Shown piece after piece: positions 5,171 through 26,550 of a stretch of DNA of 64,000 nt. This DNA is from a virus. The notes under the pieces are model-generated. The model searched no databases and was not told where the DNA came from. It saw only the letters and a program-made list of their open reading frames with translations. The translations under genes were made by a program, and so were the position numbers. The stretch covers positions 8,587-72,586 of IMG/VR virus record IMGVR_UViG_3300010376_000033; one strand, 5' to 3'. Position 1 is the stretch's first letter; every line of letters starts with the position of its first letter.

Positions 5171-5802
5171 TGGGCTTCGCCGATGTCAGCGCCTGGTTCG
5201 ACCACGACGACAATGCGCTCGTAGAGCATATCAACTGGATCACCTCGAACGCGGCCGAGAAACAGCTGGCCTTTATCCAGCCGCGCTTCGAGGCAGCCGC
5301 TCTCAAGAGCGCGGTGGAATTCGGCTCGGGCTCGGGCCGGCTGGCCTTCGCCTGGGCCAAGGCCAACCCCCAGCTCATTTACGACGGCATCGAAAAGTCG
5401 CAGAAGCTTTACGACCTCACGGTCGATCCGCACATCTCGGGACTGGAGGCGCCGTGGCTCAATTTCCACAAGGGCGATGTGCGCGACTCGGCGGTGTTGC
5501 CGACGGCGGATTGTGCCCTGGCCTTCGCCTTCATGAAGCATTTTTCCCTGGACGAGTGGAACGACATCCTGGCTCACGTCCTCATGAACGGGCGTTACGG
5601 CGCCTTCGATGTTCAGGTGGCGGGCCAGGATCATGACAACGGCACCCATTACCATCATGTTTATGTCAGCGAGACGCGCCTGCTCGAAGCCGTGCGCCTA
5701 GCTGGTCATGAAATCCTGGACCGCGCCACCTGGGAGGAATGCGACGTGGACGGCCTGGGCCGGATGCGCAACGCGGTTTTGTGGACCAAGAGGCGCTCAT
5801 GA
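5170..5802 (+). CDS. Class I SAM-dependent methyltransferase
   Basis: VEFGSGSGR motif I, YDGIEKS motif II, FHKGDVRD. Confidence 0.8.
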   Translation: MGFADVSAWFDHDDNALVEHINWITSNAAEKQLAFIQPRFEAAALKSAVEFGSGSGRLAFAWAKANPQLIYDGIEKSQKLYDLTVDPHISGLEAPWLNFHKGDVRDSAVLPTADCALAFAFMKHFSLDEWNDILAHVLMNGRYGAFDVQVAGQDHDNGTHYHHVYVSETRLLEAVRLAGHEILDRATWEECDVDGLGRMRNAVLWTKRRS

Positions 5803-6150: not shown

Positions 6151-7537
6151 TCGGGACCAGCCCCAGCGCATCGCCGTGGTCGGCGATACCCTGCTCGACG
6201 ACTGGGTGGAAACCGCGCCCTTTTCGTGTCCCGACCTATGCCCAACCGGGAAAACCTTGGGCCATCATTCGTTGCCCGGCGGCGCCGCCAATGTGGCCCG
6301 CCAATTCGAGAATTGGCACAGCCGGGCGACGCTCTTGGGGCCGCTCTCGCGTCAGCTGGCGCAGGCTCTCAAGCGCTACGGCAAGAGCGTCGATCAGGAG
6401 CTAGCCTTTGAAGTCAAGGCCATGCCCGTGAAAAGGCGCTACCGCACGGCGGCGGGAAAACTCCTGTTTCGCGCCGACAGCGAGGCTCCCGACTATGACC
6501 TGGCCCCCAGCGAGCTGGAAGAAATTCGCAGCCTGACCGTGAAAGCCGTGCGCGAGTTGCCCTGGAATGCCATTCTGTTGGTGGACTACATGAAAGGGTT
6601 TGTGGATGAGCGCCTAGCGGAAAACATCATCCGCATAGCCCGGCACCGGGACATCCTGGTGATTGCCGATCCCAAACGGCCGCCGGAGGCGTTTGCAGGC
6701 GCGCTCCTGAAGACCAATGAGGACTACTTTTCCCAGCACGAGTCCAGTTTCAAGCGCTACGCCTGGCCGCGCGTCACCACCTACGGCGCCAGCCCCCCTT
6801 GGCTCCAGACCCTTGAGACCCAAGAGCCCTTTCGTGTCTTTCGCTGTGTGGATGAGGCCCTGGCTGGCGTGCCCTGTCGCAACCATGTCGGTGCCGGCGA
6901 CTGCTTCTTGGCCCATCTGTGTCTGGGCCTGCTACATGGCCTGGGCGGCCGGGACGCCGCCCGCTTCGCGCACCACGCCGGCCGCGTTTATGTGCAACAC
7001 CTGGACGCCAGGCCGCCCTCTCACTATGAGATCGTCAAGGACTATGACCCCATAGGGGGCAAGTGGCTCGAACGCCAGGCGCTGCCGTCATTGGCCGACA
7101 GCCTGCGCGGCAGGCAGGTGATTTTTACCAACGGCGTTTTCCGCCTGCCGCACGCCGGCCATGCCTGGTTTTTGGAGCAGGCGCGCAAGCGCGGCGATGT
7201 TCTCGTGGTGGGCATCAATGACGACAGCTCGGCAGCCAGGCAGCGTCCGGGCGCCACGATCTTGCCCTTGCGCGATCGTGTGCAAATGCTGGCCTCCTTT
7301 GCTTTCGTGGACTGGATCGTGCCTTTTGGTGAGGACACGCCCGAAGCCCTCCTGAAGGTGCTGGCAGCGCCCTTAGACGAACCCGTGATCCTGGCCAAAG
7401 GTGCCGAGTATGCGGGTACGATCGTGCCCGGACAGGACCTAGCCGTTGAAGTCGTGTTTATCGAAGCATCGCCGTTCCCGCAGCATGCCACCACCTTGAT
7501 CCAGGACTTCCAGCACAAATGTCCCACCTGCCCCTAG
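6122..7537 (+). CDS. hldE: Bifunctional heptose-7-phosphate kinase / heptose-1-phosphate nucleotidyltransferase (HldE/RfaE-like)
   Basis: PfkB domain (VVGDTLLD, PGGAANVA, LVDYMKG, IADPK, VGAGDCF) fused to a cytidylyltransferase-like domain (FTNGVF.LPHAGH, GDVLVVGINDDSS, VDWIVPFGEDTP, LAKGAEY). Confidence 0.92.
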   Translation: MDFASLYARDRDQPQRIAVVGDTLLDDWVETAPFSCPDLCPTGKTLGHHSLPGGAANVARQFENWHSRATLLGPLSRQLAQALKRYGKSVDQELAFEVKAMPVKRRYRTAAGKLLFRADSEAPDYDLAPSELEEIRSLTVKAVRELPWNAILLVDYMKGFVDERLAENIIRIARHRDILVIADPKRPPEAFAGALLKTNEDYFSQHESSFKRYAWPRVTTYGASPPWLQTLETQEPFRVFRCVDEALAGVPCRNHVGAGDCFLAHLCLGLLHGLGGRDAARFAHHAGRVYVQHLDARPPSHYEIVKDYDPIGGKWLERQALPSLADSLRGRQVIFTNGVFRLPHAGHAWFLEQARKRGDVLVVGINDDSSAARQRPGATILPLRDRVQMLASFAFVDWIVPFGEDTPEALLKVLAAPLDEPVILAKGAEYAGTIVPGQDLAVEVVFIEASPFPQHATTLIQDFQHKCPTCP

Positions 7538-8247: not shown

Positions 8248-8300
8248 CCACCTACGCCGGGGCGGCGCCCAACGCCTCACCTACTTTTACAGGAGTGACC

Positions 8301-9296
8301 ATGAAGAACGCAGCCTACGAACAGTTTTTGTCCAGCCAGGGCGTACCCTGGACCTACCTGCCCAACCTGGAGCTAGCGGCCATCGATAATCAGAAATCGC
8401 TGGCCAACCAGGCGCGGCTGGAGTTGGCCATCGATCCCGACAGAGTGGCTTTCTACCAGGCGCGGTATAAGGCCGGCGAAGAGAGTCCGCCTCTCATCGT
8501 CTATCGCCAGGGCAAGGGCAAATTCATCATTCTCGACGGCAACCAGCGCCGCCAGGCGTGTCAGCCGGATGGTCAATGGAGAGGACGCTTGTTTCTCGAC
8601 GCCTACCTGATCGAAACGCGCGACGAGCAAGTCCTCAACCGGATTGCTTGGACGGCCAACATCCGTTTGAACGGTAAGCCGCTGACGCCGGCCGAAGCGC
8701 AGGCCCATGCCTTGACCTTTGTCCGCAAGTACGGCTTTACCTGCCAGCAGGCCGGTGCGGAATTTGGGGTTAGCGAGCGCACCATGCATCGGCTGGCGGC
8801 CCTTGAGGACAACAAGGATCGCTTGCGCGAGCAGAAGGTCAAGCGCCTGCCCGCCGACGACGTGCTAATTCGGCTGGCCCCTCTCGCCCATCTGGGCGAC
8901 GACATCTACGCCAAGGCCGTCACGGCGGTTGTGGAGACGGGCGCTTCGACCAGCGATATCGACGCGCTCGCCAAGAGCGTGCGCCGGGCCAAAACGCACG
9001 CGAGCAAGCTAGCGTCCATTGGCGAATTCGAGTCCTCCGAACGGGCCCAGACGCGGCGGGCCCAGACCAAGGCCGGCACCATCCGGCCGCGCTATCCATT
9101 GCCGCGCGAGAAGCTGGACCGCCTCCTCAAGGAAACGCGCGGCCTGCTGGAAGAGCAGCGCATCAAGGAAGTCCTCCTACCAACCCAGAAAAGCGACCGC
9201 GCCAAGCTCGATGAGCTGGCCGCCGACGTGTGCCGGTTGCTGGCCAAGCTGTGCGGGCCACACGTTCTCATCGTGCCGCGCGAGGAGGCTGTATGA
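8301..9296 (+). CDS. ParB/Srx N-terminal domain protein with HTH
   Basis: PPLIVY...FIILDGNQRRQA; HTH-like TCQQAGAEFGVSERTMHR; AGGAG RBS. Confidence 0.7.
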   Translation: MKNAAYEQFLSSQGVPWTYLPNLELAAIDNQKSLANQARLELAIDPDRVAFYQARYKAGEESPPLIVYRQGKGKFIILDGNQRRQACQPDGQWRGRLFLDAYLIETRDEQVLNRIAWTANIRLNGKPLTPAEAQAHALTFVRKYGFTCQQAGAEFGVSERTMHRLAALEDNKDRLREQKVKRLPADDVLIRLAPLAHLGDDIYAKAVTAVVETGASTSDIDALAKSVRRAKTHASKLASIGEFESSERAQTRRAQTKAGTIRPRYPLPREKLDRLLKETRGLLEEQRIKEVLLPTQKSDRAKLDELAADVCRLLAKLCGPHVLIVPREEAV

Positions 9297-9641: not shown

Positions 9642-9920
9642 ATGAGTCGCCGCCAGGCCAGTGAGTCCGTCCTCCAGGCGCTTCCCGGCTATCTGCCTCC
9701 GGATCGACGCCGTTGTCGCCAGTGCAACATGGTCATGCGGCCCTCCATCGGCTGGCGGGAAACCAAACCGGCCTACCAGGACGCGCAGCAGCGCTACCAC
9801 AGCCCGGAGTTCGAGCCGACGCGGATCGAGTGGTACGGCTATGGTCGTGAGAACCTGTTCTGTACTCTGCGATGCGGCTATGCCTTTGCCTGCGACCTCA
9901 TCAAGAACCAGTCAGCCTAA
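9642..9920 (+). CDS. Hypothetical Zn-finger-like protein
   Basis: CRQC...FCTLRC; AAGGAG RBS. Confidence 0.6.
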   Translation: MSRRQASESVLQALPGYLPPDRRRCRQCNMVMRPSIGWRETKPAYQDAQQRYHSPEFEPTRIEWYGYGRENLFCTLRCGYAFACDLIKNQSA

Positions 9921-9940
9921 TTCCCAGGAGTGAGACCACC

Positions 9941-11110
9941 GTGTACACCGAAGCCTTGACTTTGTGCCTGCAAACGCCGGGCTGCCTGCCGCCCCTTATC
10001 TGGGGCGACTTCGGCATCGGCAAGACCACCATCACCCAGTCCCTAGCCGCGGCGCTGGATTGGGACGTGGAGATTCTCCGTCCCGCCGAGCGCGGCGAAG
10101 GTGCCTTGGGCGTGGTGCCGATCCCTTCCGAGGATCGTTCCGTCCTCCATTACCCCTTGCCCGACTGGGCAGCCCGGCTGCAAGGTTCCGCCAAGCCGGG
10201 CCTTATCTTCCTGGACGAGGTGTCGTCCACGCCGCCGGCCTTGCAGCCGGCCATCATGGGCCTGGCCCTGGACGGCGTTATCGCCGGCCAGCGCCTGCCC
10301 GGTCATATCAAGCGCTGTGCCGCCGCCAATCCGGTCGATCAGGCCGCCGGCGGCTGGGACCTGTCCCCGGCCCTGGCCAACCGCTTTGTGCATCTATCCT
10401 GGCCCTGCCCCAGCGCCCAGAATTGGGTGTCCTGGCTCATGGGACAGCCGGACAGCGGCCTGGCTCTGCGTCTGGACCTGGAGGGGTGGGAGAAGGAGTG
10501 GGGCGCGGCCAAAGCGCTGGGAGCCGCCTTCATTCGCTCTCACCCCGCCTGTTTGCATGAGGAGGTGCAAAAGGTCCTCGGGCGAACCCCGCCGGCATTC
10601 GCAACTCCGCGGAGCTGGGAAGCCGCCTTGCGTTTGCTCGCTTCGTGCCGTGCCGCGCAGCGCGAGGACCTCTACCCCATGCTGGCCCAGGGTTGCCTGG
10701 GTCCCGCCATCGCCCTGGAAGGCACAGAGGACAACCCCGGCGGCTCGTGGCTGGTGTGGTTGAAGCACAACGATCTGCCCGACCCCGAGGAGCTGCTCAA
10801 GGACCCGACGCTCTTTCAACACGATCCGCATCGTCCCGATCGGACATTCGCCATTCTCTACGCCGTGGCCGAGGCGGCCCTGGCCACGGTCAACGGCAAG
10901 AAGCTGACGGAGAAAGCGCGGGTCGAGCGCTGGCAGAAAGGCTGGTGCGTTCTCGACCGCGCCCTGGCCATGAAGCTGGGTAAAGACGTTGTTCTCCTGT
11001 CGGCGCAGATTCTCGTGGACCGCCAGCGCCGGCCCAAGGCCATGCCCGAAGCGGAGGGCAAACGCGTCGTCGAGTTGTTGTCACAATTCATTCCTCTGTT
11101 CCGGGAGTAA
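9941..11110 (+). CDS. MoxR-like AAA+ ATPase
   Basis: PLIWGDFGIGKTT (Walker A), IFLDEV (Walker B), AAANP, SPALANRFVH, ATPRSWE; GTG start after AGGAG. Confidence 0.9.
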   Translation: MYTEALTLCLQTPGCLPPLIWGDFGIGKTTITQSLAAALDWDVEILRPAERGEGALGVVPIPSEDRSVLHYPLPDWAARLQGSAKPGLIFLDEVSSTPPALQPAIMGLALDGVIAGQRLPGHIKRCAAANPVDQAAGGWDLSPALANRFVHLSWPCPSAQNWVSWLMGQPDSGLALRLDLEGWEKEWGAAKALGAAFIRSHPACLHEEVQKVLGRTPPAFATPRSWEAALRLLASCRAAQREDLYPMLAQGCLGPAIALEGTEDNPGGSWLVWLKHNDLPDPEELLKDPTLFQHDPHRPDRTFAILYAVAEAALATVNGKKLTEKARVERWQKGWCVLDRALAMKLGKDVVLLSAQILVDRQRRPKAMPEAEGKRVVELLSQFIPLFRE

Positions 11111-16830: not shown

Positions 16831-18456
16831 GTGAAAACAGAACTAAGCCTGCGCGGCAAGCGTGTCCATGTCAAAACCCATTATGCGCCGGTTCTGGTCG
16901 AGCGCTTCCGGGCCATTCCCGGCCGGCTCTGGCATGCCGAGGACAAAACCTGGTCGTTTCCCCTGGTCCGGGATGTCCTGTGCATGGTCTGCGACGTGCT
17001 GGGGCTGCTGCCCCTGTTCTTGCCCGCTGAATTGCGCGCTGTAATGGGACCATCGCCTCAATCAATGCTGCGCCGGATCGAGAGCGATGGGGTCTCGGTG
17101 GACAACTGGCACTTCCGCACCCAGCCGTACGCGCATCAGCGTCGCAACCTGGAAACCTTGCTCAATTACCGGCGCTGGCTCTTGGCCGATGAGATGGGCA
17201 CCGGCAAGTCCTTCGTCATCGCCTGCCGTCTAACTAGCTGCTTTGGGCCAGCCTTGATCCTCTGCCCCAAGAGTGTCATGCCGGGTTGGCTGGACCAGCT
17301 GTACCGGCATGCCGGGATCGTCGGCTACCTGGACAAGGATGTCAAACTCCATGAGACGTATTCGCCCTTGATCGTCAACTACGAGAAGATTCGCGATTGC
17401 ACGGATCTCAATAGCTTGCATTTTCGCACCGTGGTTTTCGATGAGATTCACCGGCTCAAGAGCTTCACCAGCAAGACCGCCAAGGTGTGCCGCTTTCTGT
17501 CCGAGCGCGCCGAGTGGGTCTATGGCCTGTCGGGGACGCCGGCGCCCAACGGTCTGGAAGACTGGTTCGGCGTCTTGTCGGCCCTCGATCCGCACCTCTT
17601 GCCCGTCAAGACCAAAGGCGACTTTGAAAGCCGCTATTGCCTGATGGGCACCTTGCCGGACTCGAACATCCGCGTCGTTCGCGGCTACCGCAACGTCGAA
17701 GAATTGCACGGCTATATCAACGCGGTGACCTCGCGCGTGACCAAGGCGGAATGTCTCGATCTGCCCGATAAGGTAATCAGCCCGCGCTATGTCTCTCTGC
17801 ACGGCGAGCAGGCGCGCGTCTATTACGGCATCCGCAAGGAAGCGGTGGCCACCATCCGGTCGTTGCGTGCCGAGGGCAAGCTGACCGTCAAGAACGCCTT
17901 GACGGAAGGACTGCGGCTGGCCCAGATCACGGGCGGTTTCGTTCCCGACGACACGGGGGCCATGCATGCCTTGCCCGAGAAGGCCAAGGCGGAGGCGCTG
18001 TGGGAGATCCTCGAAGACCTGGAGGGCAAGCAAGTGGTTATCTGGTGTGCCTTTGTTGCCGAAGTCCACTGGATCGCCGAACAATTGCGGACTATGTTGC
18101 CGCCGCGCACGGTGAGCGTGTTGACGGGGAGCGTGCTGTCGGCCCAAGAGCGCCAAGAGCAAATCGAGCGCTTCACGACGGGGCAAGCGCAATACTTCAT
18201 CGGCACAGCGGCGACCGGCGGCGTCGGCATCAACGGCCTGGAGGTTTGCGATACGGAGGTCTACTACTCCCGTACCTGGTCGCTGACCGACTGGTTACAA
18301 TCGCAGGACCGCTTGCACCGGATTGGTCAGAAAAACAAGGTCACGATCATCCCGATCATCGCCACGAACACCATTGACGAGCGCATCGACCTGGCGCTCG
18401 AACGCAAACAAGACTTGCAAGAGATGATGCTGACTCGACCCGAACTCATTTTTTAA
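16831..18456 (+). CDS. SNF2-family helicase
   Basis: LADEMGTGKS, VVFDEIH, LSGTPAPN, GGVGINGL, QSQDRLHRIGQ. Confidence 0.95.
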   Translation: MKTELSLRGKRVHVKTHYAPVLVERFRAIPGRLWHAEDKTWSFPLVRDVLCMVCDVLGLLPLFLPAELRAVMGPSPQSMLRRIESDGVSVDNWHFRTQPYAHQRRNLETLLNYRRWLLADEMGTGKSFVIACRLTSCFGPALILCPKSVMPGWLDQLYRHAGIVGYLDKDVKLHETYSPLIVNYEKIRDCTDLNSLHFRTVVFDEIHRLKSFTSKTAKVCRFLSERAEWVYGLSGTPAPNGLEDWFGVLSALDPHLLPVKTKGDFESRYCLMGTLPDSNIRVVRGYRNVEELHGYINAVTSRVTKAECLDLPDKVISPRYVSLHGEQARVYYGIRKEAVATIRSLRAEGKLTVKNALTEGLRLAQITGGFVPDDTGAMHALPEKAKAEALWEILEDLEGKQVVIWCAFVAEVHWIAEQLRTMLPPRTVSVLTGSVLSAQERQEQIERFTTGQAQYFIGTAATGGVGINGLEVCDTEVYYSRTWSLTDWLQSQDRLHRIGQKNKVTIIPIIATNTIDERIDLALERKQDLQEMMLTRPELIF

Positions 18457-21052: not shown

Positions 21053-23032
21053 ATGACGAACGCGGAGATCGTTCCTGTCTACCGGGCTGCTTTGGAATAC
21101 GTCCAGGGAGGGCTCAGCGTCTTGCCCATCCGCTGCGACGGCTCGAAGGCACCGGCCTTGACGGCCTGGGACTTCTTGAAGACGCGGTTACCGAGCCGGC
21201 AGGAGTTACACAGCTGGTTTAGCCCCAATGGCGTGGGCATTGCCGTTGTCGCCGGCACGGCCAGTGGTAAGCTGGCCATAATGGATATTGAATATCCGGA
21301 CTTCGCCGCCCTGTGGTGCGAGCTAGTGGAGACCGAATGCCCCGGACTCATTGACCAATTACCGCAGGTGTTGACGCCCGGCAAATCCGGCCAGCCCGGC
21401 AAGCATTTTTATTTTCGAGCGCCCGAGACTGTCAGCACGCAGAAATTGGCCAAGCTGTCTGCCCTTGAAGCGGACAAACGGACAGGCGATAAAAACAAGA
21501 CAACGGCCATCGAGGTCAAGGGCGAGGGCGGTTATTGCCTGGCGCCGGGCTGTCCGGAAAAATGCCATGAATCCGGTCGCAAATACGTCCACGTCGGCGG
21601 TCCTTTTCTGGAGGAAACGCCGGTCCTGTCCGCCGATCAGGTGGCGGTCCTGTTGTCCTGCGCGCGGGCGCTTGACAACACCGAGCCGCAGCGGACGGAA
21701 GATTATGTGGGCCGCGACCGCTGTGCTAGTGATGTAGACCGCCCGGGCGATGTTTTTAACCGCCGCGGGGACTGGCTCGACATTCTCGGGCCGCACGGCT
21801 GGGTCGTGGCCCGGAGCCGGGGCAACGTCCTCTACCTGCGCCGGCCCGGCAAGGACAAAGGCATCAGTGCCACGGTGGGCTACTGTATAAGTGACAAGGC
21901 CGGTGATCTACTCTGTGTGTTTTCGACCAACGCCGAACCTTTAGGGATCGCCGACGGTCGGGACCATCAGTGTTACTCGAAGTTCGCTGCCTACGCGCTC
22001 CTGGAGCATGACGGCAACTTCCGGGCGGCGGCCAAGCAGCTGGCCGAGAAGGGCTACGGCTTCGACATCGGCCTGTCGGCGGCCGAGCGCTTCGCCATCG
22101 AGCAAGCCGAGGACATCAAGGACGTGAACGATGCGACGGCTTGGGAGGATTTGCGTCAGAAGGTGGCCCGGCGCTCCGTCGATAAGGCTTGGGACCTCCA
22201 GGGCGATGAGATCGATCTTGTGGTAGAAGCGGCCAAAAAGAATCGCGTTACAACCGATCCGAAGTTGTTGGCCGAGGAGGCGCACCGGGACATCGACGTG
22301 TCGTTTGGCACGCCCGAAGAACCGCCGGCGGCGACCAACGCCAGCGCCGCGACGAAAATGAAGCCGTGGAAACTGATCGTGATTGAGAGCGTGCCGCCGG
22401 AGTATCTGTTGCGCGCTCCGTACTGGTCGGCGCAGCCCAAGGTCCAAACCCAGGGCGGGTTTATCCGGTTAACCGTGAAGCAGTTAGCGGTCTGGACCGG
22501 ACTGCGCGATCAGGCGTTGGCTCAGGCGGACGTGCGCTTGCCCGACAAGATTCACGGCTGGGCCCGGATTCTGCAACGTCTACTCGACCGCGCTGACCAT
22601 CAGGTGGCACCGGCCGACACACGGCGACCGCATGCGGTTTTGGAATTTCTCTGGGAGAAGCTGCGCAGTGCCCATGACATCCGCGTCGATGAAAATGGTA
22701 AATTTCGCTTTGGACCGGGCTCGCCTTTACGGCTGCCGGATGGTAGAATAACGGTGAAGCTCACTTGGCTATTGCAACGAGGACTAGAACATCCCGATGT
22801 TTTCGACAAGAAAGAGCTTGTGGAAGCAATGGAATCCGTGGGCATGCAAGTTCAAGTGCATGGACCCAAGGATAAGCGCGTCCGTTTATGGACGGCAACC
22901 GCCGTGGACTTCGCCAACTTGCAAGCCACGCTTCTCGATCATTTACCCCATCATGACCTCGATCCGGCACCTTCTGAGCCAACGGACGATCTGGACGACT
23001 GTTCAGATGTCGAAAGCTCAGACTCATCGTAA
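21053..23032 (+). CDS. Bifunctional DNA primase/polymerase (Prim-Pol) domain replication protein
   Basis: LSVLPIRCDGSKAP, GIAVVAG...LAIMDIE, TPGK..GKHFYF, GEGGYCLAPG. Confidence 0.88.
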   Translation: MTNAEIVPVYRAALEYVQGGLSVLPIRCDGSKAPALTAWDFLKTRLPSRQELHSWFSPNGVGIAVVAGTASGKLAIMDIEYPDFAALWCELVETECPGLIDQLPQVLTPGKSGQPGKHFYFRAPETVSTQKLAKLSALEADKRTGDKNKTTAIEVKGEGGYCLAPGCPEKCHESGRKYVHVGGPFLEETPVLSADQVAVLLSCARALDNTEPQRTEDYVGRDRCASDVDRPGDVFNRRGDWLDILGPHGWVVARSRGNVLYLRRPGKDKGISATVGYCISDKAGDLLCVFSTNAEPLGIADGRDHQCYSKFAAYALLEHDGNFRAAAKQLAEKGYGFDIGLSAAERFAIEQAEDIKDVNDATAWEDLRQKVARRSVDKAWDLQGDEIDLVVEAAKKNRVTTDPKLLAEEAHRDIDVSFGTPEEPPAATNASAATKMKPWKLIVIESVPPEYLLRAPYWSAQPKVQTQGGFIRLTVKQLAVWTGLRDQALAQADVRLPDKIHGWARILQRLLDRADHQVAPADTRRPHAVLEFLWEKLRSAHDIRVDENGKFRFGPGSPLRLPDGRITVKLTWLLQRGLEHPDVFDKKELVEAMESVGMQVQVHGPKDKRVRLWTATAVDFANLQATLLDHLPHHDLDPAPSEPTDDLDDCSDVESSDSS

Positions 23033-23033
23033 G

Positions 23034-23283
23034 GTGTGCGCGGTGTGCGCGAGTGTGCGCGCGATTTTTGCCGACGCGCACACCGGCATCTCTTTACTGC
23101 AATTCGACTTACGTTAAAAGTGTGCGCGTGTGCGCGTGGTCAACAACATTTTTTTGAAATGAAAAATGAAATTGAAAAGCGCGCACACGCGCACACAGTC
23201 GCCATAAGTCCTTGCTGTATATAGTATAGCTGGTGTGCGCGGAGGCCAAAAAAGCGCGCACGCGCGGCGCACACCGCGCACAC
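23034..23283. repeat. Array of 11 GTGTGCGC octamers as nested inverted repeats around an AT-rich core; candidate replication origin
   Basis: Forward copies at 23034, 23043, 23053, 23120, 23128, 23233; reverse copies at 23076, 23181, 23189, 23267, 23276. Confidence 0.8.
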
Positions 23284-23333
23284 TTTTTATACCAAATTAG
23301 TATCTTGTCGGGCTTTTTGCACGAGGAGGACGG

Positions 23334-25001
23334 ATGACTCAGGCAGCGCGAATTATTGGCATTCCGGGAGCAGGGAAGACGACGCGGGCGATCGATATTA
23401 TCGCCAAGGTACGCGATCGCGGCTTCTCCCTCCAGGAGGTCGGCTTTTGCAGTTTTACCCGGGCCGCCCGCCGCGAAGCCGCGCAGCGGGCCTGTGAAAC
23501 GTTTGGCGTGCCCCTAGAATCGCTCGAACGCGAAGGATGGTTCCGTACTATCCATTCGGCCTGTGCGCGTCTCCTGCGCCTTCCTAGGGGCTGTATCGTC
23601 AATTTCGATCTCGACTGGCTGCGCGACGCTCTGCACGACCGCGACTTGGATGTCGTTCACGATGAAGAGGAAGACGATCTCTGGGTCAGCGCCTGGAAAG
23701 GGAAAGGGCCAACACGGCTCGCCTTGACGCTCTGGGACGTGGCCCGCAATCGGCTCTGCCCCCTGTTACCCGTTTACGAAGAAGCGCAGAGCCAGCTTAT
23801 CAAGGGAGCCTGGGACTTTCCGGATTACGATGAGGTCCTTCAGGTCATCCGCGATTACGAATGGGCCAAGAAGCGTGACGACCGTCTCGACTTTAGTGAT
23901 ATTCTGCTGCGCTATGCCGGCCTGGCGATGACGGCAGAAGGTCCCGACAAGACCGACCCGCAGGGCGAAATCCCGCCCGTGCCAGTGTGGATTTTCGACG
24001 AAGCCCAGGACACCTCGCCCTTATTGGATAAGGCCGCACGCCGCCTTAGCGACGGCTGTTACTGGCTCTATTTGTTTGGCGACCGTGAACAAGGGATTTA
24101 TGGCTTTGGCGGAGCGAACCCCAATTCCTTCATGACTTGGCCGGTGGCGCACGAAGAATACCTTTATAAGACATGGCGCTGCGCCCGCGCCATCATTGAT
24201 TTGGGTTTGGAGCTGATTTTGCGCTCGGACGATCTAACCAAGGAGCTGCGCCAGCTGGCTGTTGAGGCACGCTGTCCGGGCGGCACGATCAAAGATGACC
24301 ACGAAGAGAGCCTTTGTGAGCATGTCGATGACGCTGCCAAATCAACGCTGATTATGGCCAGGACCAATGCGCAGCTCAAGGAGATTCACGGCCGCTTAAC
24401 GGACGAGCGTATTCCCTGGCGCTCGGTCAAAACGGGTGCGCGCTGGCCCCTGTTAACGACCCTCAAGCTGGCCCAGGCCCTGGCGAATCTCCAAGAAGGC
24501 AAAAGCATCGACGGCGAGGCGTTCCGCCGCATCGTCCACGGCATTCCTGCGCAATGGCTGGACCGTGGCACCAAGCAGTTTTATAAGCGGGCCGAATCCG
24601 TTCTCGAGGTGAAAGATTGCTGCCTGGCCAGCGCCGTGGCCCACGGCTGCACACCAGCCTTGGTGACTCGGATCGCGACGGGAGCTTGGGCGCGCCCCGA
24701 GACGGGCGTTATCAAGCAGGAGACCGCGGAGGCGTACCAAGCGCAAAAGCGCTGGGGAACAGCGGTTGTCGCCAATCCGCCGGTGCAGGTGTCTACCATT
24801 CATGGCTCCAAGGGGCTCCAGGCGGATAAAGTCGTCCTCTTGACACGGATCAATGAGACCATTCGCCGCCATCTGCTCAGTGACGAAGGCGGCAATGAAG
24901 AGCGCCGCGTCTGGTATGTCGGGGCCACACGAGCCCGCGATGAATTGGTTCTGCTGGCCGGTCGCCGGCCCAACTATGAGGAAATCTATGACTGCCTTTA
25001 A
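23334..25001 (+). CDS. UvrD/Rep-like superfamily 1 helicase
   Basis: GIPGAGKT, IFDEAQD, FGDREQGIYGF, STIHGSKGLQAD, EERRVWYVGATRAR. Confidence 0.93.
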   Translation: MTQAARIIGIPGAGKTTRAIDIIAKVRDRGFSLQEVGFCSFTRAARREAAQRACETFGVPLESLEREGWFRTIHSACARLLRLPRGCIVNFDLDWLRDALHDRDLDVVHDEEEDDLWVSAWKGKGPTRLALTLWDVARNRLCPLLPVYEEAQSQLIKGAWDFPDYDEVLQVIRDYEWAKKRDDRLDFSDILLRYAGLAMTAEGPDKTDPQGEIPPVPVWIFDEAQDTSPLLDKAARRLSDGCYWLYLFGDREQGIYGFGGANPNSFMTWPVAHEEYLYKTWRCARAIIDLGLELILRSDDLTKELRQLAVEARCPGGTIKDDHEESLCEHVDDAAKSTLIMARTNAQLKEIHGRLTDERIPWRSVKTGARWPLLTTLKLAQALANLQEGKSIDGEAFRRIVHGIPAQWLDRGTKQFYKRAESVLEVKDCCLASAVAHGCTPALVTRIATGAWARPETGVIKQETAEAYQAQKRWGTAVVANPPVQVSTIHGSKGLQADKVVLLTRINETIRRHLLSDEGGNEERRVWYVGATRARDELVLLAGRRPNYEEIYDCL

Positions 25002-25464
25002 CCCGGAAAAATGCTGCTTCTGCCCGCAGGCTTTTGCCAACTGGGACGCCCTGGTCGAGCATCTGCGCCAGCACCATGCGCGGAGCCGGAAAGAAGCCAG
25101 AGCCAAGCAAGGCTTAGCCTTTTATGTCGTGAAAGGTCGCAGCCTGGTCGTCTGCGTCTGTGGGCAGTCCTTCACGCGCGATGAGTCCTGCTTGCCCATC
25201 CAGAAACATACCAACGACTGGAAGGCCCATGTCCGCCGCGAGGGCGGCCTGGTGGCGCACTTCGACAAGCTACGCTGGCAGCAGCTTTTAGACTTCTTGC
25301 AGGCGGACAAGAACGCGCAGAGCGCGGACGACTGGCTCGATGCCCTGGCCACGGTCGGGCTGGTCACGCCCAAGCGGGATAGTCTCTATCGGCTAATCCA
25401 ACAAGCGGCCTGGGACATCAAACTCGACCAGCTTGATGTGGACGGAATCTGCCTGCCTGAGTAG
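24988..25464 (+). CDS. Hypothetical protein with C2H2-like Zn finger
   Basis: CCFCPQAFANWDALVEHLRQHH; CVCG...H. Confidence 0.6.
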   Translation: MTAFNPEKCCFCPQAFANWDALVEHLRQHHARSRKEARAKQGLAFYVVKGRSLVVCVCGQSFTRDESCLPIQKHTNDWKAHVRREGGLVAHFDKLRWQQLLDFLQADKNAQSADDWLDALATVGLVTPKRDSLYRLIQQAAWDIKLDQLDVDGICLPE

Positions 25465-25506: not shown

Positions 25507-26550
25507 GTGGCGCTCGAGTATTGGGATGGCTTTGACGATTACTTGGCGACGCAGATCGTGCGCTATTTCACTGCCGTCTACACGGGTGTCGGCTCGACCG
25601 TGCAGACCTCGGCCAATAACGTTAGCAACGTCGCGGGGGCCTATGGCGGCCAGGCCATCCTGACCAGCTCGGGAGCGCCCGGCCTAGCACCCAAGGGCGG
25701 CAACCAGGTGACGCGCACGGTCGGCGCCCGCTACCAGACCACGGGCGTCATTAGCTCCAGCGTCGGCCTGACTACCTGGGTCGATGGCACCACCATTCAG
25801 GTCAGCATCGTCGTCAATGCCAACGGCACGATCTCCTGCTACAAGGGCTCGACCTTCGGCACGTTGTTGGGAACCAGCGCGCAGGTGCTGTCGGCCGGGG
25901 CCTGGTACTACATCGAGACGAGCGTTACCATCAATAGCTCGACCGGCAGCATCAAGGTCAATGTCGCCGGTGCCAATTGGCTCAACATCACGGGCGTCAA
26001 CACCAATAACTCCGGCAATAACTGGACGAACCTCGTGTGCTTGGGCTCGATGGGCGCCGGCGGCAATATTATCATCGACGACCTTTACATCCGCTCCGAC
26101 GGCACCCTGATGGGCGATCAGCGCGTTCAGACCATCTATCCCAACGGCGTCGGGGCCATGGCGCAATTCACCCGCGGCGGCTCGACCATCAATGCGCAAA
26201 ACTACCAGCAGGTCAACGAAGCCACACCCGACGACGATACGACCTACGTGTATACGCCCGTTGCCGGAATCGGCAACGTGGACACCTACACCTATCCCGC
26301 CATCGCCACCACGACGGGCACGGTCGCCGGCGTCATGGTCTGCCCGATGATGAAAAACGACGCCGGCGGCGTGGTCAGCGGCCAGGCCGTGTACCGGATC
26401 GGCACGACCAATTACTTCGGGGCCACCAGCTCCCTGGGCGCCAGCTACCTGGGCTATCCCGACCTGTCCACCGTGAACCCGGCCACGTCCCTGGCCTGGA
26501 CGATTAGCGATGTCAACAGTGCGCAGTTTGGCATTACGCGGACTGCCTGA
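25507..26550 (+). CDS. Putative virion structural protein (beta-rich, lectin/fibre-like)
   Basis: T/G/N/S/V-rich; WYYIET...GSIKVNV...IDDLYIR resembles a concanavalin-like beta sandwich. Confidence 0.55.
   Translation: MALEYWDGFDDYLATQIVRYFTAVYTGVGSTVQTSANNVSNVAGAYGGQAILTSSGAPGLAPKGGNQVTRTVGARYQTTGVISSSVGLTTWVDGTTIQVSIVVNANGTISCYKGSTFGTLLGTSAQVLSAGAWYYIETSVTINSSTGSIKVNVAGANWLNITGVNTNNSGNNWTNLVCLGSMGAGGNIIIDDLYIRSDGTLMGDQRVQTIYPNGVGAMAQFTRGGSTINAQNYQQVNEATPDDDTTYVYTPVAGIGNVDTYTYPAIATTTGTVAGVMVCPMMKNDAGGVVSGQAVYRIGTTNYFGATSSLGASYLGYPDLSTVNPATSLAWTISDVNSAQFGITRTA

Follow-up and report, generated by a model that had tools for sequence, protein, structure and literature searches.

What is the function of a 250-bp block of repeated sites that lies between a primase-polymerase (Prim-Pol) gene and a helicase gene of an uncultured phage, and could it be the place where replication starts? 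The block was studied within a 64-kb window, the whole stretch of DNA that was analysed, which comprises bases 8587-72586 of a linear 75,554-bp IMG/VR viral contig (GC content ~61%; essentially all long ORFs on the + strand). A preliminary description of the window had reported 11 copies of GTGTGCGC in 250 bp, an outer 17-bp and an inner 16-bp inverted repeat and a 45-bp AT-rich core with T7 and A tracts, and had read the block as a candidate origin bound by the Prim-Pol protein, with unwinding at the core or priming from a cruciform or single-stranded hairpin. These structural features were all recovered, and the origin reading is supported at the comparative level by a related locus (L007), by a survey of Prim-Pol loci and by a predicted winged helix in the Prim-Pol protein. 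We consider it likely, from comparison of sequences, that the 250-bp array is a replication origin of the phage, of the type that combines iterons with an AT-rich core.

Architecture of the array and its genomic setting

The replication module runs in the order SNF2 helicase, two small conserved proteins, PAPS-reductase-like protein, Prim-Pol, array and UvrD-like helicase (Table 1). The placement between a primase and a helicase, as given in the preliminary description, agrees with the domain assignments of the two flanking genes (PF09250 Prim-Pol at 21053-23032 and UvrD-like helicase at 23334-25001), the second of which also matched PHROG 1967 (DNA helicase, E 5e-54). The first iteron begins 2 bp past the Prim-Pol stop codon (TAA), and the UvrD-like helicase gene, which has its own RBS (GAGGAGG), starts 50 bp 3' of the last iteron. 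An ORF at 24853-25464 overlaps the 3' end of the helicase gene and matched C2H2 zinc fingers at a level under the Pfam cut-off (E 2.4e-4); it may encode a small nucleic-acid-binding protein of the replication module.

Table 1. Coordinates of the array and of associated features of the replication module (window numbering).
Feature	Position	Strand	Details
SNF2 helicase	16831-18456		Replication module
Prim-Pol gene	21053-23032	+	659 aa, P0001; PF09250 E 1e-15; PHROG 19930 DNA polymerase/primase
Predicted winged-helix module, P0001 residues ~518-640	22604-22972	+	AF2 model, pLDDT 89
Left outer set: three direct iterons GTGTGCGC(G)	23034-23060	+	Starts 23034, 23043, 23053; spacing 9, 10 bp
T5-containing spacer, then one inverted iteron (23076-23083)	23061-23083
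Left inner tandem iteron pair beside core	23120-23135	+	8-bp period
AT-rich core	23136-23180		45 bp, 27% GC; T7, A5, A4 tracts; symmetry centre ~23158
Right inner tandem iteron pair	23181-23196	-	Mirror of 23120-23135
+ iteron 23233-23240, A6 spacer, degenerate iteron 23255-23263	23233-23263		Mirrors 23053-23083
Right outer iteron pair	23267-23283	-	Perfect mirror of 23034-23050
UvrD/Rep-like SF1 helicase gene	23334-25001	+	PF00580 E 5e-18, PF13361 E 3e-14

When both strands of the 64-kb window were searched, all 11 exact copies of GTGTGCGC fell inside 23034-23283; shuffles of the whole window held 4.31 copies on average and never reached 11, and the rest of the 75.5-kb contig added zero copies. 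The sequence is the most clustered 8-mer of the contig, 10 of its 11 copies extend to the 9-mer GTGTGCGCG, and GTG(TG) is present in every iteron of the array. With a degenerate twelfth site (CGCGCACGC, 23255-23263) the sites form a 6+6 mirror arrangement, in which the site centres relative to 23158.5 are -121, -112, -102, -79, -35 and -27 in the left arm (orientations + + + - + +) and +26, +34, +78, +101, +112 and +121 in the right arm (- - + - - -), so that the distances match. The arms are complementary in their spacers too (84/108 aligned columns; 78%). Both inverted repeats are perfect, the outer one (23034-23050 / 23267-23283) over 17 bp, with 95% identity over 20 nt, and the inner one (23120-23135 / 23181-23196) over 16 bp. 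The lowest-GC 30-bp window of the contig (13% GC) starts at 23149, within the core (23136-23180), which is a candidate DNA-unwinding element. Taken as single-stranded DNA (top strand), the element folds into one long hairpin (-100 kcal/mol, z = -12.8). Locus-specific repeats in non-coding DNA, arrayed beside an AT core, fit the anatomy of iteron-type origins.

Other signals of origin position were also considered. The cumulative GC skew has its global maximum at 25,560, at the end of the replication module, with no minimum at the array, and the skew is clearly negative from ~26 kb on with the coding strand unchanged. Because all genes are co-directional, this maximum is probably set by the boundary between the early and structural modules; GC skew therefore gives no support to the array as an origin and is uninformative rather than contradictory. 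There are no DnaA boxes at the array (the window has 15 matches with one mismatch, all of them outside it), and a sigma-70-type promoter scan of 22500-23800 returned nothing, with a consensus that may not be that of the host. Since the contig is estimated to be only ~77% complete, another origin may lie elsewhere.

The contig contains further repeats and a gene pair of separate interest. It opens with a CRISPR-like array (G000:C1:1-430, ~8.2-8.6 kb upstream of window base 1) of at least 6 copies of a ~35-bp repeat (GGGGACGTTGTTCTGAATCAGGATGAAGTCGCGAC) with unique spacers of roughly 26-42 bp, which could be either phage-borne or part of host DNA that adjoins a prophage or lies at the edge of the contig. 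At G000:C1:4558-4620, also outside the window, a palindromic block of ATTGATG heptamers (three direct, then inverted copies) directly follows a stop codon; no other stretch of 45-100 bp in the contig is as AT-rich, and the block could represent a terminator or a further repeat/hairpin element. An ATPase gene at 9872-11110 (phrog_1297, E 2e-31) follows a ParB-like gene at 8295-9296, and the two could be a partition-like or DNA-modification pair.

Related arrays at other Prim-Pol loci

DNA-level comparison with the same primase architecture was performed with one relative, L007, a metagenome contig that encodes a full-length primase homologue (43% identical), is syntenic in two upstream genes as well and ends inside its array. 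At the end of its primase gene are three direct sites, a T-run, an inverted site, a spacer, a tandem pair, a core (38 bp, almost pure A/T) and an inverted tandem pair. The orientation pattern (+ + + - + + core - -) is identical in the two loci, the successive site spacings are 9, 10, 22, 46, 8, 46 and 8 bp in L007 vs 9, 10, 23, 44, 8, 53 and 8 in the window, and the converging pair with a T-run between its sites (the 23053-23083 region of the window) is also present in L007, where the run is T7. Conservation in relatives, the absence of which had been set beforehand as evidence against the origin reading, is thus seen in site order, orientation, spacing and AT-rich core. The site itself is GGTGCGCC in L007 vs GTGTGCGCG in the window, and the two primases share 37% identity in their C-terminal domains, which differ in the predicted wing by an indel of 4 residues. 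To judge from these two loci, a geometry that is kept while the word changes is the behaviour of protein-binding sites that co-evolve with their binder, and such pairs of site and protein (GTGTGCGCG vs GGTGCGCC, with the 4-residue difference in the predicted wing) could be used to study recognition specificity.

The L007 primase ORF reads through the first four iterons (9836-9920; stop codon 9918-9920), so that the left arm of the putative origin overlaps the 3' coding end of the primase there, and in the window the stop codon precedes the first iteron by 2 bp. The comparison with L007 also bore on two other candidate explanations, both of which were rejected. A Z-DNA property was suggested by the tandem GTGTGCGCGTGTGCGCG, which is perfectly alternating purine-pyrimidine, but the L007 site GGTGCGCC is not, and the property is therefore not conserved. 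For a MITE or other insertion there is no target-site duplication, and the L007 array lies at the same position.

Similar arrays after homologous primases, which the preliminary description had proposed to look for, were sought in 378,647 bp of sequence from 33 other Prim-Pol loci, in each of which the primase ORF is complete and followed by 400 bp or more. A 7-mer counted as an array when a 300-bp stretch held five or more copies, in both orientations, and when no less than 60% of its copies in the locus fell inside the cluster. The survey returned 17 mixed-orientation arrays, of which 12 lie within -300 to +400 bp of the end of the primase ORF, compared with a chance expectation of about 1 (binomial P about 1e-11); after a rough, hand-estimated dereplication, 9/13 arrays were at the primase end (P about 7e-9). 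Placement next to the end of the primase ORF, as in the window, was thus seen in 12 of the 33 loci. An annotation rule follows from the survey, namely that the 3' end of a Prim-Pol gene is where such an array is to be expected, with a site sequence particular to each locus. Several of the arrays share the plan of the window array; those of L006 and L005, for instance, are built as a tandem pair, an extreme AT core (13-20% GC, ~95 bp) and an inverted tandem pair, and start 2 bp (L006) and 173 bp (L005) after the primase stop codon; the primases of these loci are Prim-Pol proteins fused to SF3-type helicase domains (VapE, D5_N/DUF5906 or DUF3631). The L021 and L029 arrays have the pattern + + + ... 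+ + + ... - - - and are not full palindromes. A different arrangement from the downstream mirror arrays was observed in L008, whose Prim-Pol N-terminal domain is 47% identical to that of the window: nine CCGACAC copies in one orientation lie at 6627-6765, 1.2 kb upstream of the Prim-Pol gene.

When 2.9 M viral contigs of IMG/VR were scanned with a protein-blind DNA pattern based on the shared GTGCGC core, five loci were returned. In two of these, L045 and L046, the CAGTGCGC arrays lie where ORFs that encode Prim-Pol+AAA_25 have their 3' end, and the Prim-Pol of L045 is 32% identical to that of the window. On these 43-kb IMG/VR contigs, about 14-15 copies of (C)AGTGCGC in both orientations lie at L045:2933-3220 and L046:5384-5651, inside or at the 3' end of open frames of 931 and 884 aa; they are probably origins that overlap the coding end of the replicase. 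The other matches were set aside, with no relation to Prim-Pol arrays found: L044 and L047 hold GT/GC microsatellite-like tandem arrays, and L048 holds a single palindrome. The L044 and L047 contigs are related, and their arrays (2500-2690 and 5400-5580, respectively) are ~170-bp microsatellite-like runs of GTGTGCAC/GTGTGCGC units.

GTG is part of the conserved core in 8 of the 14 different iteron families that follow Prim-Pol genes, and partly so in 3 more; the arrays with GTG include the window array (23034-23283), L004-L006, L028, L039 and L040. In most GTG-bearing arrays, the arm nearest the primase carries GTG on the strand that codes for the primase. The enrichment (about 5-6 of 12 independent arrays vs ~20% expected, in loci that are not independent) is suggestive only.

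The Prim-Pol protein and its candidate origin-binding domain

From its N-terminus to its C-terminus, the window Prim-Pol (P0001) has an AEP primase-polymerase domain, a middle domain, a helical region and a domain specific to its family. The PF09250 match scored 59 bits against a cut-off of 22.8 bits. Foldseek placed the N-terminal domain closest to pRN1 ORF904 (1rni, E 1e-8; also 3m1m, E 1.5e-7), which was likewise matched in a profile-to-PDB search (E 4e-6). Residues D78, E80, D83, H118 and D146 are invariant in a 10-sequence alignment and are candidates for the acidic and His residues of the catalytic motifs. No ATPase or helicase domain was detected in the 659-aa protein with Pfam or PHROGs, and there is no Walker A motif; across 41 family members, Prim-Pol/PriCT were the only matching domain families.

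Full-length homologues in protein databases number nine (39-53% identity). The C-terminal domain of ~200 residues has 68 detectable relatives among 1.8 billion representatives, nearly all of them C-termini of 500-640-aa Prim-Pol/PriCT proteins. INPHARED phages include no close relative by DNA and none by tblastn of the C-terminal half of Prim-Pol, and searches of IMG/VR with the single Prim-Pol protein and with alignments gave distant N-terminal relatives only, or none. Gemmataceae and other Planctomycetota MAGs hold N-terminal relatives of the window primase; the C-terminal domain had no match in 401 Planctomycetota genomes and 4 MAGs, which thus give no evidence for prophage copies.

The C-terminal domain was modelled alone with AF2, and structural comparison of residues ~518-640 gave the PadR-family protein Rv3488 (5zhc) as the best match (VIA-align Z 8.6, rmsd 3.1 A, 95 residues); almost all of the best 50 VIA-align rows are winged-helix DNA binders, with a predominance of PadR, MarR, forkhead and RTP types. 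SaPIbov1 Rep (8tch) was matched weakly by Foldseek (prob 0.57). The model indicates that residues ~518-640 are probably a winged helix, an assignment that is probable and not certain because a Z of 8.6 is middling. The helix that would normally serve for recognition is acidic (KKELVEAMES) and the predicted wing is basic (GPKDKRVR); therefore the wing would do the reading if the domain binds DNA, and GPKDKRVR is the more likely reading element in the model. A basic wing has been reported as the reading element in PriRep5 of SaPI5 (bioRxiv 10.64898/2026.10.17.759575), and winged helices are the usual origin-binding modules of SaPI Rep, P4 alpha and pRN1 ORF904 (PMC9371898, PMC2777425). We accordingly regard the predicted C-terminal winged helix of Prim-Pol as a candidate origin-binding domain, with somewhat less confidence than we have in the origin itself.

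Alternatives, proposed initiation and known systems

The same DNA could be read in other ways, the nearest of which is itself a variant of the origin reading: the element would act as a single-strand initiation signal, as a cruciform or ssDNA hairpin, with the repeats serving as GTG primase start sites that the Prim-Pol/helix-bundle domains read on ssDNA, as RepB' does on ssiA/ssiB of RSF1010. The hairpin potential of the whole element and the 78% complementarity of its arms, spacers included, speak for it, as do the GTG(TG) in all iterons and the recurrence of GTG in arrays after Prim-Pol genes (8/14, with a partial occurrence in 3 more). A template GTG is needed by pRN1 ORF904, which among solved structures is the closest one (PMC2777425), RepB' starts within a GTG beside its hairpin (PMC8567376), and L045, which shares only the Prim-Pol domain, also has the GTGCGC core, in a locus that was found by searching for that core. 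However, several related arrays, those of L021 and L029 among them, are not full palindromes, so hairpin formation is not the shared feature; the GTG enrichment is no more than suggestive at the counts given above; the GTG-carrying strand is reversed relative to the core in L005 and L006; and the conserved C-terminal domain with its predicted winged helix is left unexplained. Set beside the RSF1010-type signals, the array has strong ssDNA hairpin potential and GTG in every repeat, and no sequence or size resemblance to the 40-nt hairpins of ssiA/ssiB. We consider this variant unlikely. The cruciform or hairpin of the preliminary description is possible in the window phage, because the element is a near-complete palindrome, but it is not the conserved feature across related arrays.

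Lower still do we place a role in RNA, in which a long transcript hairpin would act as a terminator, an attenuator or an RNase III processing site. Both flanking genes are on the + strand and the region is probably transcribed, TTTTT follows the base of the long hairpin, and a consensus scan found 10 terminator-like sites (hairpin + T-run) vs 1.7 expected in shuffles. These matches occur on both strands, however, as by-products of tandem or inverted copies of one self-complementary, alternating purine-pyrimidine motif, and an RNA hairpin needs neither 12 copies of one 8-mer nor the changed 8-mer of L007 at kept spacing. T-runs are not conserved after related arrays (that of L006 is followed by an A-run, and L021 has a separate canonical terminator before its array), and Rfam gave no family match, the sole hit being a chance one to mir-466 (29.6 bits vs a threshold of 85 bits). 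Slightly less probable again is an array for another DNA-binding protein, whether an operator cluster of a phage regulator or a parS-like centromere for the product of the ParB-like gene (8295-9296). Operators and centromeres, too, can contain repeated sites that face both ways, and the ParB-like match (phrog_1033, E 1e-6) is followed by the ATPase gene (phrog_1297); that match is weak and without Pfam support, the gene is 14 kb upstream of an array that lies 2 bp from the Prim-Pol stop codon, and it is with Prim-Pol genes that arrays are statistically associated across loci. Furthermore, a central AT-rich core at the GC minimum of the genome is a feature of origins rather than operators, and the genes, which all run in one direction, show neither a repressor-like nor a divergent promoter arrangement. 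Phage ends can also be marked by non-coding DNA that is palindromic and rich in repeats, but a packaging (pac/cos) site or genome terminus is the least probable of the alternatives and very improbable in itself, given that the array sits in the replication module and that the arrays of relatives adjoin primases, not terminases.

For an iteron-type origin, the C-terminal domain of Prim-Pol, with its predicted winged helix, would bind the sites as double-stranded DNA, with several protomers per arm, because the 8-10-bp period sets successive sites close together along the helix. A symmetric nucleoprotein complex would form on both sides of the core, and the core would then melt, possibly aided by the T/A runs between the converging sites of each arm. 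As Prim-Pol is without a motor domain, a separately encoded helicase would extend the bubble, for which the UvrD-like SF1 helicase encoded 50 bp downstream would be the obvious candidate, the choice being a guess. The Prim-Pol domain would prime both strands, and the GTG triplets in the iterons may be template start signals. A more specific proposal, which we put forward tentatively and hold to be rather doubtful as a whole, is that a helicase-less Prim-Pol initiator marks a fully palindromic origin via its family-specific C-terminal domain (a new small subdomain plus the winged helix), that the iterons first dock the protein as duplex DNA and, once melted, provide the primase with GTG starts, and that unwinding is passed to the SF1 UvrD-type helicase encoded across the origin. 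If true, the primase itself would be the initiator, in a system unlike those of SaPIs, P4 and pRN1, whose initiators are self-loading SF3/MCM helicases. The locus offers a concrete, testable candidate origin for an uncultured phage lineage; the layout of iterons 3' of an initiator gene around an AT core appears to extend to motor-less Prim-Pol proteins, and such an origin raises the question of how an SF1 helicase gets loaded.

Among known systems, the Rep of ColE2-type plasmids is, as in the present proposal, one helicase-less protein that both recognises a specific origin sequence and synthesises the primer; its origin comprises one site of ~30 bp, unlike a symmetric array of iterons around an AT-rich core. 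P4 has a primase of a different class and requires a second cis site (crr) for replication, and the iterons of RSF1010 are direct 20-mers. At RSF1010 oriV, the helicase-less AEP-fold primase RepB' works with a separate helicase (RepA), inverted-repeat signals lie on opposite strands and priming starts at GTG, all of which resemble the window; the differences are a dedicated iteron-binding initiator (RepC), recognition by RepB' of two 40-nt ssDNA hairpins instead of a 12-site duplex array, and a description of RepB' as catalytic and helix-bundle domains in which a winged-helix tail is unmentioned (PMC8567376). P4 alpha (ori/crr type I iterons) and pRN1 ORF904 are primase-containing initiators with a C-terminal winged-helix origin-binding domain, and the pRN1 origin region is likewise downstream of the replicase gene, whereas the SF3 helicase that both carry between primase and winged helix is absent from the window Prim-Pol (PMC2777425).

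The closest likeness is to the pri-rep-ori modules of SaPI/PICI elements, the pathogenicity islands of Staphylococcus aureus, with Rep1, Rep2 or a fused PriRep5 (PMC9371898; bioRxiv 10.64898/2026.10.17.759575; Ubeda et al. 2007, cited in PMC7581432). SaPI origins, the design of which has been experimentally characterised, have 6-12 iterons directly 3' of the initiator gene, divided equally between the two sides of a central AT-rich region in opposed orientation, with some inverted iterons in the arms and A/T runs between them, and are bound by the C-terminal winged helix of the initiator (PMC9371898; bioRxiv 10.64898/2026.10.17.759575; PMC7581432). The window array is similarly directly 3' of the Prim-Pol ORF, its 6+6 opposed sites flank a central AT-rich core, its arms hold inverted iterons with an A/T run between converging sites and a tandem period of 8-9 bp, and its Prim-Pol has a predicted C-terminal winged helix. 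In contrast, SaPIs use as initiator a hexameric helicase of SF3 or MCM-like type that loads itself, and the window Prim-Pol has no ATPase domain, the phage encoding its SF1 UvrD-like helicase separately, after the putative origin. The window iterons are 8-9 bp long and GC-rich in a ~61% GC genome, the spacers are palindromic too, and the genome that carries the element is that of a large tailed phage (>75 kb) and not of a satellite. The array would therefore work like a SaPI origin but outside that module type, because its Prim-Pol is not a self-loading helicase. What is distinctive here is the combination of a helicase-less Prim-Pol as the putative initiator, a separately encoded SF1 helicase and a near-complete palindrome of 250 bp.
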